A stretch of DNA of 64,000 nt, taken from positions 94,364,001 to 94,428,000 of the forward strand of contig OX597814.1 of the NCBI GenBank assembly GCA_951406725.2. The letters are read 5' to 3'. The stretch comes from Octopus vulgaris. Lineage: Eukaryota. Made by a program: the position numbers and the translations under genes. The stretch's first letter is position 1. Each line of letters starts with the position of its first letter. Below, in pieces: positions 1,463 to 61,240 of this stretch. The notes under the pieces are model-generated. The model saw only the letters and a list, made by a program, of their open reading frames with translations. It had not been told where the DNA came from and ran no database searches.

Positions 1463-1668
1463 TTTTTGAGGTAGTCGAACTGCGGTTTGTACGTGTCGTA
1501 TAGATCTACATCATACATCTCTACTTCATGAGTAAGATCAAGCGGACTAGTCAACTGCCATTGCCAAGTCATTCCCGGTTCAAATTGCCACCAACATCCA
1601 AGGACTGATGCAATCTGCTGCAAGATGACCAGGTGCAGTACAGTCCATATCCATCCTGCATATACCAT
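1463..1668 (-). CDS. First coding exon of a secreted GH114-like glycoside hydrolase (endo-alpha-1,4-polygalactosaminidase family); gene continues leftwards, probably beyond the window
   Basis: Translation MVYAGWIWTVLHLVILQQIASVLG|CWWQFEPGMTWQWQLTSPLDLTHEVEMYDVDLYDT: a hydrophobic signal peptide followed by the GH114 N-terminal pattern W.P.PG.TWQWQL...D....YD(I/V)DL(F/Y)D. The exon is bounded by a polypyrimidine acceptor (TTTTGTTTTTTCAACAG, exon starts 1675) and a GTAAGT donor (intron starts 1462, phase 2). The ATG is in AAAATGG context. Confidence 0.85.
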
Positions 1669-1693
1669 TTTAAATCTGTTGAAAAAACAAAAG

Positions 1694-1762
<69 letters not shown>

Positions 1763-3080
1763 GTGTGTATGTATGTATGTATGTATGTATGTATTGTGTG
1801 TATTTGTGTGTGTGTGTATGTGTGTGTGTGTGATATGTGTGTGTGTGTGATATGTGTGTGTGTTTGACAGATATACGTTCATATATACATATATGCAAAC
1901 AAGCAATGTATCGAAATAAATATACTCTCTATTTCGTCGGTACACTATCCTCTTTCTAGAAGACAGACGTTCATAATATATGAGGATGTATATGTATATG
2001 CATCCTCAGCGGAAAAACATACAACTAGAGAGAATTTTACTCGGAGTAAATAAATGTAAAAACTCCCTGTGATACATGAAAGGAAACATCAAGACTAAAT
2101 CAGATTCCATTCAATTTTGAAATCTGCTGTATTAATAAATAAAATAAATACCATCTAGTTACAAGGAAAGTATTTATTGCGTACAAAACGTTTAGCAGAG
2201 AGCTCAATAAAAGTGAAAGTGAAAGAAATCCGCTGCTTGTATTCTTTCTGGTTTTAATATTATATGTCTATTAGAGTGAATTTTCGTTTAGACTGCAGGC
2301 TAAATACATCTGTGACCTTTCAATCACTGTTTAACTGTATCAGCTAGTAGCCGATGTGAGATAACGTGGATATTTACTGTTGAAGAAGCTTACAATAAGA
2401 AATGAAGATCCAGCAAATTTCATGACCAATGCTGGTCGACCTTTGCATACTGCCGATATTTTTCTGTTTTCATTCCTAAGAGATACGATCTCAGGACGAA
2501 TACGACAGTTTAGAAGGCTTTCAACATATACACATTCAAAGTATGCACAAGATCGGTAATAGTAAATAAATACAAGTGAAACGAATATTTTACAATAAAT
2601 CAAACTACTCGTTGCAATAAGCACATTATATATTCTTCAGCTTTTCTGGACACGATCGTTCTTATAGTAGAAAGAGATTCACAAGATATATGAATACGCG
2701 TAGGCTTAACTCCCATTAATTCAATTGTCTCCGTCTATCACAATATGTGCGTGTTTGTTTACATAAGCATGTGTATGTATATATATGAATGTATTTATAT
2801 TATGTAGGTACACAAACACACGAACGCACGCACAGAGATACACATTTATGCATATACATACATATATACATACACAAATACACAAACACATACACACACA
2901 TGGACACACATATCCCTTTCAAATGATCTATACTTCCTTTTGGCTTTACAAGACCCATTTACAACTTGTTTACAATTCAGCTAACATTATCTAATTACCC
3001 TTTATCTGTCTTTCCCATATATGTACATATATATGTATGTGTGCATATGTATATGTTTATATATATATATATATCTGTGC

Positions 3081-3129
<49 letters not shown>

Positions 3130-3161
3130 CATATGTATATATATATATATATATATCTGTG

Positions 3162-3204
<43 letters not shown>

Positions 3205-3205
3205 C

Positions 3206-3260
<55 letters not shown>

Positions 3261-3275
3261 TATATATGTATATAT

Positions 3276-3315
<40 letters not shown>

Positions 3316-3317
<2 letters not shown>

Positions 3318-3775
3318 TTCGTGCGTGGCTGTGTGCTAGGAAGCTTGCTTCCCAACAACAATGTTTCGGGTTCAATCCTGCTGCGTGGCACCTTTAGCAA
3401 GTGTTTTCTACTATAGGCTTGGGCCAACCAAAGCCATGTCAGTGTATTTGGTTGATGGAAACTGAAAGAAGTCTGTCCTCTCTCTCTCTCTTTATATATG
3501 TATATATATATATATATATATATTTATTTATTTATTTATTTATTTATATATTTATGCGTGTATATTTGTCTGTGTTTTTCCATGCGCACACACCATTGCT
3601 TAGAAACCGATATAGGTGTATTTACGTCCCCGTAACCTAGCGGTTCAGTAGACGATATCGATAGAATAAGCGCCAGGCTTACAAAGATAAGTCCAGGGGT
3701 CGAATTCTTCAACTACAAGTCGGTGCTTCAGCATGGCCACACTCGAATGACTGAAACAAGTAACAGAGTAAAAAA
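3316..3775 (+). mobile_element. SINE family A (tRNA-derived, CORE-like, OR-type) with internal microsatellite
   Basis: GTGGCTGTGTG..A box, GGTTCAATCC B box, GGCACCTT..GCAAGTG CORE-like motif, internal (TA)n, and tail ...CAGCATGGCC...ATGACTGAAACAAGTAA. A second partial copy lies at 3820-4075. Confidence 0.8.
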
Positions 3776-3776
3776 G

Positions 3777-3823
<47 letters not shown>

Positions 3824-4092
3824 CCTCAGGGTAACCAAAGCCGTGTGACTGGATTTCATACACGGAAACTGAAAGAAGACTGTCGTATATATGTGTATAT
3901 TTGTGTTTCTGTGTTGCTGTGTTTACGTACCCATAACTTAGCGGGTCGACAAATGACACTGATAGAATAAGTACTAGGCTTGCGAAGCATGAATCATGTG
4001 GTTGATGTGTTCGACCAACGGCGGTGTTCCAGCATGGCTGCAATCACATGACTGAAACAAATAAAACAGTAAAAAAACTATGGCATTTTAAT

Positions 4093-4121
4093 CCCGGGCA
4101 AGGACGGGTATCTTTGCTAGT
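4093..4121 (+). mobile_element. Helitron-like 3' terminus
   Basis: GC hairpin CCCGGGCAAGGACGGG followed 8 nt later by CTAG|T. Confidence 0.45.
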
Positions 4122-4124
4122 ATA

Positions 4125-4424
4125 TAAATATGCTCGAAGATAGAGCAGGACGTCCTTCAACTTCCACTACAGACGAAAAGAGTCAGCAAGCTCGAGAGAT
4201 AGTAATGGTCTTGGATCCCTGCTCTTTGTTCTTTTTTAGTGCATATCGCTAGTGGAGCAGCTATGCTTACACTGTAAAAGCAGAAAGAAAAATAGCGAAA
4301 TCAGGCTCAAGCTTCGATCGCGTAACCACAATAGTACCAACTATAAGCACGCATGCGCAGGAGGTTGTGTGACAATAATAAAGATATGGTGAAAGTGCGG
4401 ATAATTTTTGACTTCCCTTCGTAC
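4125..4424 (+). mobile_element. Mariner remnant (HTH-linker fragment plus right TIR)
   Basis: Translates as RAGRPSTSTTDEKSQQAREIVM (GRP linker). Ends in AAGTGCGGATAATTTTTGACTTCCCTTCGTA, a mariner-type TIR ending in TA. Confidence 0.6.
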
Positions 4425-5800
4425 ATATTATATCTTCAATTTTTATTTCCCACCAGTCACTTCCTCTCATTAATCTTTATATTGTCATCTACTTTGTAAC
4501 AGAGCCAGTTTGTATCAGGGACACTTAGTTAACGATAAATATTCTCGTAAAATTTTTCCTCCACACCTTAGTATATATCATTTATAAATTACACATAAGT
4601 TACAAGGCCTATCAATTTCTGGCACGGGAATATGTATTATGGTGACAGAAATCCGACTTTCAATGGATAATTATGTAGTATTAATAATCGAAAGAAAAAA
4701 ACCCACAAGAGAATAAGCATTTTTTAATCATAAATCCCTATCAAGTAGCAACAGTGGGGACGTGTATGTGTGAGTGTATGTGTGCGCGTGCGTATGCAGT
4801 TCTTGGGAAAAAATAAATTTTGTTCGTAACGTAGTTTCTCAGAAAAGAAAAAAGAAATTTTACGGTGCCCCAATATGACGGCTGCTGTCGATCTGAAACA
4901 AGTTAAAGAGTTAAACAATGTCAAAAATATAGGAAAGGCATCCCTATAGATGCAAATGCATTATTGCTGTATTTGCATAAGACACCATTTATTTTTAAAT
5001 AAAGAGTCTCAAAATTCACCTGGGGTCCTTCTATATGAAATTGACCCAGTATACATTCTTTAATGAACTAAAATTGTATATATGCGCTGATAAAATTGTG
5101 GTCCGTTAAATTCGCCTGTGCATTTTTATGCCATCAGATATGATACTTATCGCTCCTCGACAAATATAATTTTATTGGGATTTACATAAGTGTCCAACAT
5201 GTGTTCTGGAAATTGCATCTTGTCTATTTCTAGAATATTCACGCGAGAGAAATACGGAGGTATATGTTTATAGATTTCAATGATCCATTAGACTAAAGTA
5301 GGATTTAAAGTTTTGGATGGCAAGAAAATGAAATCTGTGAGTTCCAATAATAACTATCCCGACTGGTATTCGACTAATTGAAGGGCCTAATCATTGAATT
5401 ATAATGTAATTGACTGAGTTTTTCTCAGCTATGTGTATCATTTCAGATAGTTATAGACAGAAAAATAGGAAGATATAGTCTTTTGACAAAGATAGCCATT
5501 TATATTACAGGTGACGTCGCATCGAAGGGCTTCTACCAAGTTTTTATCAAACCAACTTCATTCACAAGTCTTAGAACGATCTGAAGCTATGACCCAAGAC
5601 ACTTACCTGGGCCAACGGTGTGGGTCAAACTTTCGAATATATGGTTAACGAGGATTGACTTTAATTCTCACTGCTATAACACTCTCCCCACCCCTCCCCA
5701 TACACATTAAACACACTCACACATAGATATGTATGTATATATCTGTAACTACGTATCTTTTTATATATATATATATATAATATAAAATTATATATATATA

Positions 5801-5997
5801 TGGCTGTGTGGTAAGTAGCTGTGTGGCTGTGTGGTAAGTAGCTTGTGGCTGTGTGGTAAGTAGCTTGCTTACCAAGAACATGGTTCCTAGTTCAGTCCCA
5901 GTGTGTGGCTCCTTGGGCAAGTGTCTTCTACAATAGCCTCGGGCCGGCCACAGCCTTGTGAGTTGACTTGGTAGACGGAAACTAAAAGAATCCCGTC

Positions 5998-6032
<35 letters not shown>

Positions 6033-6387
6033 TTTGTCTGTCTGTGTTTGTCCCCCACTCCAACATCCCTTGACAACCGATGTAGGTGTGTTTACGTCCC
6101 CATTACTTAGCGGTTCGGCAAGAGAGCCGGATAGAATAGGTGCTAGGCTTACGAAGAATAAGTCCCGAGGTCGATTTGCTCCACTAAAGGCGGTGCTCCT
6201 TTAGTGGAATAAAAGAATATGTGTATGTATGTATGTATGTATATACACACATATGTACACACAATCACACACACACATATATGTGTACAAAGAATAAGAC
6301 CTGTAGTCGATTTGCTCGACTAAAGTCGGTGCACCAGCATGGCCGCATTCAAATGACTGAAACAAATAAATGAATAAAAGAATAAAA

Positions 6388-6390
<3 letters not shown>
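5801..6390 (+). mobile_element. SINE family A, rearranged (triplicated head, duplicated tail)
   Basis: GGCTGTGTGGTAAGTAGCT x3, CORE-like segment, internal (TA)n, and two tail segments. Confidence 0.85.
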
Positions 6391-6441
<51 letters not shown>

Positions 6442-6989
6442 TAAGAAAACAAATCAGAGTCTCTATCCTACTATGACATCTGCATTTATTATTTTTCTAT
6501 ATAAAGACTACGATGCGAAATCATTTGAATATTTTCAGTTCTTGATCGGAATGTAATCCGGTAAACTTCGTTGAAATACAATAATGCTTATATGAATTAT
6601 TCATACGTACAATATTCTAATTCCCTGTGAAGCTGTTGAGTATTAATTCTAGAATAATCGTTTGTTTCATTCGTATTGGCATCTTTTATTTACTTGTAGC
6701 CTCTTTGAAATTCTTCCTTGTGAATTAATGTTTTCTGAATGATTCCACAAATTGCAGTATTAGAGTTTAAACTTCCTCTTTTCCATTTATTTATTATTCT
6801 GTATTCATTCCTGGTTGTCTAAATATTTCGTTGCAAAGATCTGGGTTTCTTTTCTTTTCTTTTTTTGTTTCTGTAATTTTTTTCTGTTTTTCTTTCTCAT
6901 GCTTTTACGGAAAACATATTACAATATATGTATGCATACATAGGTGTCCATAGATTCAAACACATACTCCCGTATACACTCACACATGT

Positions 6990-7060
<71 letters not shown>

Positions 7061-10000
7061 CATTAGTGTGTGTATGAATATATGAATACGTATGAAAGCT
7101 CATCGTTCACATCAGACATTTCCTAAATACAACATTCACACACTAAGTGACGCATGCCTACATTTATTTCAACTCATTTCTTTGATAAAAGGATAAGTCT
7201 GATAACCAGAAAGATAACTAGGAATAGATATCGGTTTATGTATATAGACATATATACATATACATACATGCATAGGCATATATATCTATCTGTGTGTGTA
7301 TGTGTCTACATGAGATGTATGTGCGCATATGTGTACATGTATGTATGATGTAAATTCTCGTCACATTGACATCTTGAATCATATCTGTGATATTGACTTA
7401 CTAGTCACTCTACCAGTCCTCACAATACACCCGCGCGTATATATGAAGGAATTTACACGATCAATAATACAGATTACACCACAAGCATAGAATATACTTT
7501 TTCGCCACTGTTAATTAATATACTGCTACTTCAAATTCAATACCCTGATTGTCATTGTGGAAGCACGTTCATTTTATATGGTTTGAAAATTGTCTTAGTT
7601 ATAATTCAGTTTCTGCTACCTCACCCTCTAATACTAAAGCCAATAATTGCCAATATGAGCACAAATACATCAATTTTTCGGGAATGGGGTGGTTGTTAGT
7701 CGATTTCATTGTCCCTAGTACTTTACTGGTATTTATTTTATCGAATTTGAAATGATGAATGGCAAAGCTAATTTCTGCGGGATTTAAACAGAAGAGGTAG
7801 AAAGTTGGAAGGAATGCCGCTAAGTATTTTTCCGACGAGTGAACATTCAGCAAACTTGCCAACTTGAAGGGTTTTAATAATATAAATGATAAGATATTAT
7901 TTTGTATATGAAACGTCATTATTTACATACCTTTAAAACCAAATAATGATAGAGTACATAAATGAAAGGAAAATAGTAAAATTGATGAGTATACAGGTTA
8001 GAGTGAAACAACCTTATCTAGAGGAATAGAAAAAAAATAGAGGAATAATGAAAGTAACAAGTTGACAACTCACAGAACAGGTGACATGTTGAATCAGTTG
8101 ACGAAATGGGGAGAAAAGTAAATGATTTACCGCTAAACATAGAGAAGAAAACAACTTCACTTTGATTGGCAGCGAATTAGGATTTTCGGATTTGTAATTT
8201 CCTTCTACTATCAGTAAAGCAGGAAACATATTAAGGCAAATAAATAACGAAGGAAAACAGGAAATTTTCTCTAAGATACATAATGATTTCATACACATGC
8301 ATATACACAAATACACAAACAACCATATCTACAAAATATATATTCCACCAGCCTTTCAAGTTCTTTCCTATCAAGTACGGATGTAAGGATTTGCGTGGAA
8401 CCTTATTTTTATAGTCAGTTATCTTAGTCAAGAATTTTGAGTCTGCCGTGCCTGTTATTTATTTGTTCCCATTAGATTTCAATTTTTAAACAATCCTTGA
8501 TATCAAATTTGTTTTAACAATCATGAAATAAGCTGGTCGTTGTTCCTGATATTTACGTCGATCGTTCAATGCCCTACGTGAAGTTCCCATGTTAAATTTT
8601 AAGTCATGCTTTGCTACTAATATAAACTGCATAAACAATCTTCTAAGTTTTTGTGCGTTTTCTGTATATACATTACATCACTAACAAATGTGAGTTATCT
8701 AAGTTTTATGCTGTGCTATGTTATATATTATCTTGTGTAGCTCCTTGCTATTTATATGCTTGATCTGTCAATGGGTAAGTTTGATAATAGTATATGTTTT
8801 GGCTAACACAAAAATTTAGTTTAAAACTCCCACACTTTGTAATTCATATTAGTCAATACTTGGGTTTATTGTTGATTTGAGACGGGGAAATTTCAGTATT
8901 ACCGTACCTTAAAGATAACAACGAGACAAAAACGCTATGTCCATTATGCTCTTTGTGTCGCGTTGTCTTGTTGCTGTGTAAGAAGCATATAGCTGGTGTA
9001 TATTGCACCATCACAGACAACTAGTTAAGGAAGTGCTCAGCTTTCAAAAATATACATACGGTCTAGGAGATTCTACACAGATTTATATAAGATATATCAT
9101 TCCACATATCGGCCAAGATTGTCACCAATTGTTGCGTTGAAAACAAAAAGGTAAAAAAAGATGTTTTTAGAGGATCGAATTTATGGTATCCTTCTTCTTG
9201 CACGCTCTTCTATGTGTGCCTTAAGCAAAGAAGCATTTAGTTGATCTTTGTGATACTGACCTTGTTTTCATTAGTTGTTTCACATTCACGCCTTTATTAC
9301 TAGCAACGGTTGTAAAATAAATGCTAATCCTGTATGAATTCAAAACACCACATTCGCTCCTTACATTGGGTTTGTCCCGTTGTTTGTCAAGATGCACATG
9401 TGCGATGTTCTTGGTGCTGGCATTATCGTTTTTGTAGTTATTGGCATTAACCGTGTCATCTAAAGTATTCAAATTAACAATTTTAGATGTTATAAAATTT
9501 AATTACTTTTCCATGCACGGTACGAGAGATTTATTCTGAAATTAGGTTTGTTCTTCGTGTTCATATTTACAATTTTTCTTTTAACATGGATTTCTGTGTT
9601 TGACTGGAAGCTATATTTAGATGAAATGTAAACAAAACAAAAAAGAATGTCCAAAAAAATCGTGCGTTATGTACCCCACTCATACGATCCCCAATGTTTT
9701 CCAGGCGTCTTCTCTGCTGAGAATTATCCCCAAAGTAATATATTTCCTTCAATCGTATTTGCCAAGACATTAAAAATCTCAGAGGAAAACGAAGAATCAT
9801 GGCAAATATCATAGGTTAATATACAATATTGGGAATGGAATCCAGAGATTATTTGCCCAAGGTGCTAAGGACTATTTATAAATTTTACTCTAAGGTTTTT
9901 CGATACATGTAATCCAGTAAATAATTCTTTTTTACTCTTCGTTTTACCAGACACTCATATAGATACTAAAATCAACAAATTATTACAGTCTCCATAAAAA

Positions 10001-59651: not shown

Positions 59652-61069
59652 TTTATAGCGTGCTTTCACTTCACTACCGAGCGCAGCTCTGTGTGCCTTG
59701 GGTATGTGCTGTGATTTGTTGTGATGCTCTGATGGTTATAGTATGGAAAGTGTTCTGCGTAGGATGTGTGCAGTGCCTAGTAGTGCAATTTTCTGTATGT
59801 TATATGTGTTTGTAAGTCCTTGTTATGTATTTGTTATATGTGTTTGTAAGTCCTTGTTATGTATTTGTCTGAATATTTTTTTATCATGCCTAATGCACCT
59901 ACTATGATAGGAATTGTTTCTGTTTTCAGGTTCCACATTCTAGTTAATTCTATTTCCAGGTCTTTGTATTTTGAGAGTTTCTCCATTTCTTTTAGAGACA
60001 CGTTGTCATCTGCCGGTATTGATACATCAATTAGAAAGCATTTTTTTCTTCATGATCTCTGACAACTATATCTGGTCTGTTGGCCTTAATTTCTCTATCT
60101 GTGTGTATCGGCATATCCCAGAGTATGGTTGCTTTCTCGTTTTCTGTGACCTTTTCTGGTGTGTGCCTATACCATCTTTTTTCTGTTGTTATTCCATAAT
60201 GTTGGCATAGCTTCCAATGTATGTAGGTTCCAACTCTGTCATGTCTGTGAATATATTCCTTCTTAGCCAGGACTGGGCAGCTAGAGATAATATGATTTAT
60301 TGTTTCTTGTCCATCTCCACATATTCTGCAGTTACTTGTAATATTTCTTTTCATTACATGTTTTTGGTAATTTCTGGTGGGGAGGCTTTGGTCTTGTGCT
60401 GCAATTAAAAATCCCTCTGTTTCTGCTTTGAGTCCTGAGCTTCTCAACCATTGCTGGGATTTTTCTTTGTCTATTTCTTTTGCGTTTAGTTTAGTGCAGT
60501 ATTTACCATGAAGGGGCTTTTCTTGCCATCGTTTTATCATGGCTCGTTGCTGTTCTATTTTTAGTTTGGATTTCATTTGTTTTATAGCTTTTGTTGTTTC
60601 TTCATCATCTTCTTCTTCTTCTTTGTGTTTATTAGGTGGTATGATTTCTTGTTTGTATTTGTCAGCTTCCTTAAATACTGAGAACAGTTTTTTGTTTTGC
60701 TCGTGTTTTGCTGCTATCTGGATCAGTTTTCCTTCCTTCTGAAGTAGGTATTTTTGCAGTCCTATGGTGGTTATTTTATAGTAGTTTTCCAGCTGTATAA
60801 GGCCTCTACCACCTTCTATACGTTGTATATATAGTCTTTCTATGTCAGATTTTGGGTGATGCATCCTAGATCCTGTCAGTATTTTTCTTGTTTTCCTATC
60901 TATTTTGGACAGTTCATTTCGTGTCCAGTTAAGGATATTGTAGCTGTAACTTATAACTGGGACAGCTAAAGTGTTGATACCTATTATCTTGTTTTTAGCA
61001 TTGAGCTCTGTTTTTAGTATTGATCTAACTCGTCTATAATATTCTTTTTTTATTTTCTCTTTCATTTGT

Positions 61070-61071
<2 letters not shown>
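59652..61071 (-). mobile_element. 5'-truncated R4/Dong-clade non-LTR retrotransposon (family 1) inserted in (TAA)n
   Basis: 344-aa ORF 60031-61065 with RLY..R.EGGRGL, CCHC knuckle CRICG...ETINHIISSC, RHD and RPDIV. Continues after a frameshift as FLIDVSIP...KEMEKLSKYKDL...IPIIVGALG...LLGTAHILRRTL* (stop 59736-59738). (TAA)n on both flanks. Confidence 0.92.
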
Positions 61072-61116
<45 letters not shown>

Positions 61117-61119
61117 AAC

Positions 61120-61240
61120 AACTCCTCCTTGGCGTAGGCGGAGGTATTGTCTTCAGTCGTGTTTGTTTCTTTGTCCGCGGACAACATATCTCAAAAATCG
61201 CTGGATGGATTGGGATGAAACTTTCAGGGTTGTTTGTTAC
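61120..61240 (+). mobile_element. Helentron-associated (HINE/DINE-1-like) element 5' fragment
   Basis: CTCCTCCTT..GGCGGAGG hairpin, TTGTCTTC..GTTTGTTT..GTCCG microsatellite-like block, and ATCTCAAAA..GATGGATT.GGATGAAACTTTCAGG core pattern. Confidence 0.55.

Follow-up and report, generated by a model that had tools for sequence, protein, structure and literature searches.

The window analysed here, a 64,000-nucleotide (64-kb) stretch of Octopus vulgaris genomic DNA, carries on its minus strand the first main coding exon of a four-exon GH114 gene that belongs to the host genome and has orthologues across four mollusc classes. We give roughly even chances to the proposal that this single-copy gene, taken up from a bacterium in one event that preceded the divergence of the mollusc classes, encodes a secreted GH114 enzyme which cuts microbial alpha-1,4-galactosamine matrix polymers. 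The horizontal transfer, which a sequence-only reading of the window had offered as a novelty, has been in print for the octopus since 2018 (PMC6011040), and the headline is therefore not new. The likely single origin across the molluscs and the link to a shell proteome are useful additions that we have not found stated; no report of a mollusc-wide GH114 was found in the literature searched, mostly outside subscription journals, or among the matches listed, and an accession search of the literature for the other mollusc orthologues gave unrelated number matches only.

The gene and its four exons

The exon lies at 1675–1463 (minus strand), between a pyrimidine tract with AG acceptor at 1700–1676 and a GTAAGT donor at 1462–1457. 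Seven bases precede the ATG at 1668, which stands in good context (A at −3, G at +4), and the coding part of 206 bases comprises 68 codons plus 2 bases, ending in a phase-2 donor and corresponding to residues 1–71 of the protein record P0123. The clean exon with acceptor, donor, Kozak ATG and 68 codons described in the sequence-only reading is thus present in each of its elements, and the hydrophobic N-terminus, WQFEPGMTWQWQL and YDVDLYDT that it noted can all be read in the translation. Searched by itself against Pfam GH114, the exon gives a weak match of 20 bits (cut-off 27). Against a GH114 profile lacking the cephalopod rows it scores 39.0 bits, compared with 4.3 for the next best open reading frame of the window and a best score of 6.5 on 20 shuffled windows. 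The GH114 exon is real and stands well above chance.

Codons 1–24 (1597–1668, minus strand) form a signal peptide predicted from hydropathy, with a Kyte-Doolittle maximum of 2.10 over 11 residues and a putative cleavage site; 15 of the 16 mollusc orthologues examined exceed 1.9 within their first 30 residues. Codons 25–68 (1463–1596, minus strand) make up the N-terminal part of the GH114 barrel, matching PF03537 positions 1–35 and aligned to the Ega3 structure 6OJ1. Codon 25 (1594–1596, minus strand) encodes a seventh cysteine, located at the predicted start of the mature protein. All six rows of the cephalopod clade in alignment A2 share this cysteine, as does one of the chiton paralogues; it may lack a partner or may serve in dimer formation.

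The downstream exons, expected to the left of the window, were found there, all three separated by GT-AG introns. Intron 1 (9,050 bases) has its 5′ part at 1–1462 of the window (minus strand) and continues past the window edge. Exons 2 and 3 were located by a PF03537 search of the octopus genome, about 9 and 15 kb to the left: exon 2 (contig 94356412–94356117, minus strand) carries W105 and D140, and exon 3 (contig 94350789–94350641, minus strand), beyond intron 2 of 5,327 bases, carries E198. Exon 4 (contig 94314874–94314731, minus strand), which ends in a stop codon, came from a motif scan as the sole match in 124 kb on both strands, 35.8 kb beyond exon 3 across intron 3 (35,766 bases). The introns have phases 2, 1 and 0. 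The spliced product of 264 amino acids is identical at 264/264 residues to P0123, a record named for both Octopus vulgaris and O. sinensis. Because a search of the genome with the whole protein returned four matches, one per exon, the gene appears to be single-copy.

Upstream of the main exon, a GT...AG intron of 6,398 bases (1676–8073, minus strand), with (TA)n and (TG)n repeats just before its acceptor, separates it from the 3′ end of a further exon (8074–8087, minus strand) whose in-frame ATG adds 7 residues; this accounts for isoform X2, the longer form annotated in O. sinensis and O. bimaculoides. Isoform X1 of the same two species, with one additional residue at the 1676–1681 junction (minus strand), would call for a tandem acceptor; in the window this site is CAACAG and offers a single AG. 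An alternative O. vulgaris model, P0129, lacks the signal peptide and has a different end, and the Pomacea model P0435 lacks the hydrophobic N-terminus; both are probably annotation errors.

Elsewhere in the window, a broken mariner (Mos1-type) transposase with HTH_48 and Transposase_1 matches occupies two open segments at 27989–29065 (plus strand). A 373-codon open frame at 60034–61152 (minus strand) resembles the C-terminal part of a non-LTR retrotransposon protein and gives a weak zf-RVT match, below cut-off.

The identity of 50–54% to bacterial proteins is high, and on that ground the locus might be taken for bacterial contamination or a dead remnant. This reading has a negligible probability: it is excluded by the three GT-AG introns, 50 kb in sum, on a contig of 225 Mb, the open frame of 264 codons, the orthologues in other octopods (86–98% identity) and a published spliced cDNA, and the coding GC of 42.5% within a 36% GC region also counts against it. 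The cDNA is that of the O. bimaculoides orthologue, a 489-base RT-PCR product from hepatopancreas (Liu et al., 2018; PMC6011040), and it crosses the exon 1–2 and exon 2–3 junctions of the octopus model. The earlier view of an intron-bearing host gene rather than a contaminant is thereby borne out: the gene lies in the host genome, has spliceosomal introns and, as the printed cDNA indicates (PMC6011040), is transcribed. Exon 2 was also present in 20 of the 24 sequencing runs listed, none of them on record as RNA.

Predicted fold and catalytic residues

The full protein matches PF03537 with 274 bits (cut-off 27) over positions 1–231 of 231, confirming the GH114 identity proposed from the first exon, and PF03537 is the sole matching family in 20 of 20 mollusc rows. 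The match to Aspergillus Ega3 has an E value of 1.5e-59, and a sequence search of the PDB with the octopus protein gave three matches, all GH114. For the AlphaFold model (pLDDT 77.6) the best Foldseek match was Ega3 6OJ1 (E 1.6e-23, TM 0.78), followed by 9EP6 and then by GH191 and PelA. The modelled fold is a modified (beta/alpha)8 barrel with a beta3 insertion, closest to that of Ega3.

In Ega3, D189 has been verified as nucleophile, E247 as acid/base and W154 as lid residue (available text of PMC12054363). Counted along the Ega3 alignment, these correspond to octopus D140, E198 and W105, so that the catalytic residues are intact; D140 and E198 are invariant in 20/20 mollusc rows and W105 is kept in 19/20. 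By analogy, a retaining endo-glycosidase mechanism would apply to the octopus protein, which also agrees with the family at 54 of 57 columns whose conservation reaches 90% or more in 394 non-mollusc rows. The motifs predicted for the downstream exons were recovered in part: VCYISVGTWENWR and DGIEPDN are present, and the acid/base motif reads TESC, with T replacing the expected N.

At eight columns that are otherwise conserved, one of them adjoining the acid/base, cephalopods deviate from the family, and they have T or S in the acid/base motif where the family has N. GH114 enzymes have a negatively charged substrate cleft. The conserved acidic residues D53, D55, E84, D89, E108, D143 and E223 are kept in the octopus protein, yet its overall pI is 8.6; octopod proteins range from 8.4 to 8.7 against 4.5–6.2 in the other 17 mollusc rows. 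The basic character results from the C-terminal exon, exon 4, which is rich in Lys and Arg in octopods where other molluscs have Asp, Ser and His. With the long cephalopod stem in the trees (0.55–0.70), the T/S for N and the basic octopod proteins suggest that specificity may have shifted.

Distribution and origin in molluscs

Named orthologues were found in Argonauta, a chiton (two paralogues), five gastropod genera and four bivalve genera. The suspicion that similar genes occur in other molluscs was well founded, with orthologues in chitons, gastropods, bivalves and other cephalopods, and a cephalopod-specific reading gives way to this spread over four classes. Two Logan clusters at 64–68% identity group with the octopods and probably come from other cephalopods. 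Named animal rows numbered 5 in one list of matches and 12 in that of the mollusc profile, and all were molluscs; the lists hold the best 120 of 1,817, 4,616 and 7,995 matches, mostly rows without names, and other animals are possibly among the remainder. Seven of ten representatives looked up were named protists or chytrids. In other eukaryotes the family has a patchy distribution, with members in chytrids, an oomycete, a plasmodiophorid, a diplonemid, a labyrinthulid and an amoeba, and also in brown algae (accessible part of PMC11468063). Tandem proteins of two to five GH114 domains are seen in Plasmodiophora, Diplonema, Hondaea and two chytrids (P0266, P0267, P0274, P0276, P0365). A mollusc-specific C-terminal insert was considered as a shared marker and rejected: the 14-residue spacing from the EY motif to the next Cys is found in 15/16 molluscs but also in 136/370 non-mollusc rows.

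Phylogenetic analysis started from 538 domains that passed the length filter; 18 near-duplicate mollusc rows were removed and the remainder thinned at 80% identity to 410. IQ-TREE runs under a mixture model, on hand-picked subsets of 55, 58 and 52 of these rows, recovered a mollusc clade in all three analyses (support 99/91, 95/97 and 87/98; the bootstrap of the 99/91 run had not fully settled, at 0.979). A separate gain of GH114 by cephalopods would fit the FastTree analysis of all 410 rows, in which the four cephalopod rows stand apart from the other 12 molluscs, and also their pairwise values, which for each of the four are about equal for the best non-mollusc row (0.56–0.59) and for the best other mollusc (0.53–0.58). 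We regard such a gain as very improbable, because the three mixture-model trees place cephalopods with the other molluscs and because the octopus introns coincide with Mytilus at two positions and with a chiton at one.

These shared positions were read from proteins rather than gene models, and are evidence separate from the trees. Five short Mytilus ORF fragments were inspected; each is identical to the full-length Mytilus protein at residues 62–159, the span of octopus exon 2, and each is flanked by intron-like sequence, Phe/Leu-rich before and a Gly followed by unrelated residues after; these flanks fit genomic read-through with a phase-2 acceptor and a phase-1 donor. A chiton isoform carries a 5-residue insert, with Val as first residue, exactly at the octopus intron-3 site. 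Because the intron positions of octopus, Mytilus and chiton match, the gene likely predates crown Mollusca, and it probably entered once, in an ancestor shared by chitons, snails, clams and cephalopods. The split between chitons and shelled molluscs is more than 500 million years old.

A Myxococcota-like bacterial donor is favoured, though not proven, by the sequence comparisons. The nearest named relatives are mostly Myxococcota among the matches listed, and when the 394 non-mollusc rows are ranked by mean identity, two named bacterial loci are among the first 15 (0.56–0.57), from which Ega3-like rows are absent; two of the latter take ranks 286 and 340. In the tree with six Ega3-like rows the molluscs fall among Myxococcota-type sequences (84/85), and a clade of molluscs with all 12 eukaryote-type rows is rejected (p 0.032). 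The horizontal origin advanced in the sequence-only reading can accordingly be graded probable, the best trees nesting the molluscs among bacteria. In the phylogenetic check, a sister group of Ega3-like rows, which are judged fungal by likeness to Ega3 only and stand in unrooted trees, is not rejected by AU tests, with p 0.63 in one analysis (constrained tree 4.1 lnL better than the free tree of the 95/97 run, which was thus not the optimal one) and p 0.073 with six Ega3-like rows (constrained tree 30 lnL worse).

These two AU results leave some room for an immediate origin that was not bacterial, either fungal or by opisthokont inheritance with loss in most animals, as does the top feature match in the atlas, an Ascomycota cluster. 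GH114 in chytrids, several protists and, in the text available to us (PMC11468063), brown algae would agree with such an origin, and other animals could hide beyond the best 120 of 1,817, 4,616 and 7,995 matches. We nevertheless consider it unlikely: with six Ega3-like rows the placement among bacteria is the one that is 30 lnL better, a clade of molluscs, chytrids and Ega3-like rows is rejected (p 0.0085), eukaryote GH114 sequences are scattered among bacteria in the tree, and the 12 named animals among the best 120 of the mollusc-profile list are all molluscs.

Predicted secretion, proposed substrate and related systems

The course that we infer from a bacterial donor onwards is as follows. 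After a single acquisition before the mollusc classes split, the enzyme would be secreted into gut and mantle secretions. By inference from Ega3, D140 as nucleophile and E198 as acid/base would carry out a retaining double displacement, and the W105 loop would close over the polymer chain. The candidate substrates are microbial alpha-1,4-galactosamine polymers, Pel and deacetylated GAG, and the enzyme would serve to loosen biofilm, either ingested or settling on secretory surfaces. For a predator such as the octopus, a purely nutritional role is less plausible.

Evidence on the location of the protein comes from the limpet Lottia, whose orthologue (gene model 163670, with peptides that match P0228) appears with 4–9 unique peptides in six of the six protein tables of hypochlorite-cleaned shell matrix (accessible part of PMC3374290). 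On re-analysis it amounts to about 0.002% of the shell matrix by iBAQ and is labelled uncharacterised, DUF297 (accessible part of PMC4094399), and the available text of the shell-matrix study cautions on passive occlusion (PMC3374290). The Lottia data support an extracellular location in the mantle compartment; a structural role is not supported. In the supplements of octopus skin-mucus and ink proteomes to which we had access (PMC10138644, PMC10142993) an identifier search gave no match, and the identifier schemes may differ.

Presence in all six shell-matrix tables could also point to a substrate of the animal's own. With the same history, the enzyme would then trim or transglycosylate a galactosamine glycan of mucus, extrapallial fluid or shell matrix, a reading that we hold to be rather unlikely, given the trace level in the shell and the hepatopancreas source of the octopus cDNA (PMC6011040). 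It would be in keeping with the retention of the gene in filter feeders, grazers and predators alike, with the transglycosylation of which GH114 enzymes are capable (available text of PMC12054363) and with the action of Ega3 on a polymer of its own maker (available text of PMC9860509). The PelF/Gtb3-type domain PF11997 gave no match in the octopus genome, which fits a foreign substrate; this blank is weak because the genome was searched exon by exon, with controls matching in 3 of 14 cases. A search of the same genome for PF12138 (Spherulin4) gave no match, and no control matched either. To our knowledge no alpha-1,4-linked GalN polymer has been described from molluscs, which also counts against an own substrate.

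Returning to the microbial polymers, the substrate is less safe than the mechanism, because a Fusarium GH114 failed to act on Pel although its catalytic residues are intact (available text of PMC12054363) and because cephalopods deviate at eight columns. Only a few GH114 enzymes have been assayed according to the same text (PMC12054363), and the literature searched, mostly outside subscription journals, yielded no assay of an animal GH114. The anti-biofilm reading, if true, would make this the first enzyme from an animal with demonstrated cleavage of Pel or GAG. A small secreted animal GH114 is easy to express, and with it one could ask directly whether animals produce an enzyme of their own against the cationic biofilm polymers of Pseudomonas and Aspergillus; inactivity on Pel/GAG-type polymers would suggest a molluscan glycan not yet described. 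Its phylum-wide distribution with shared introns would turn the gene into a dated marker of early mollusc evolution. A fuller account, which we advance tentatively and with some doubt, is of one capture by a biofilm-grazing mollusc ancestor, three introns in place before the classes split, and a phylum-specific anti-biofilm enzyme of gut, mantle and shell kept for more than 500 million years, with a fast-evolving basic variant in cephalopods.

Among known systems, the closest is the O. bimaculoides ‘PGS’ (XP_014784751.1, LOC106879613), which falls in the same 90% cluster, its isoform X3 being identical at 259/264 residues. A companion paper by Liu et al. in Gene (2018) calls the transfers ancient in its title, and may already report other molluscs. 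In the Data in Brief article (Liu et al., 2018; PMC6011040) ‘PGS’ is one of 12 transferred genes and is nested among bacterial homologues; the screens there cover bacteria, protists, fungi, plants, vertebrates and nr only, and the text is silent on other molluscs, introns, catalytic residues and function.

With Ega3 of Aspergillus fumigatus (6OJ1/6OJB), the octopus protein shares the barrel (TM 0.78, 39% identity), the nucleophile, the acid/base and the lid tryptophan. Ega3 has an N-terminal membrane anchor and a place in the GAG biosynthesis cluster (PMC9860509), its properties being taken here from the accessible parts of PMC12054363, PMC9860509 and PMC13345962, whereas in octopus the barrel follows immediately on a short predicted signal peptide, the protein as a whole is basic, and no GAG cluster was seen. 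The bacterial GH114 proteins, endo-alpha-1,4-polygalactosaminidases whose nearest named members are mostly Myxococcota, are 50–54% identical; unlike the octopus gene, theirs have no introns, and the several inspected have longer N-terminal extensions before the domain. The GH166 hydrolase of PelA and GH191 have related barrels (Foldseek E 1e-9 to 2e-11) and act on the same polymers, but differ from the octopus protein in sequence, with 10–17% identity, and are absent from its PDB sequence matches.
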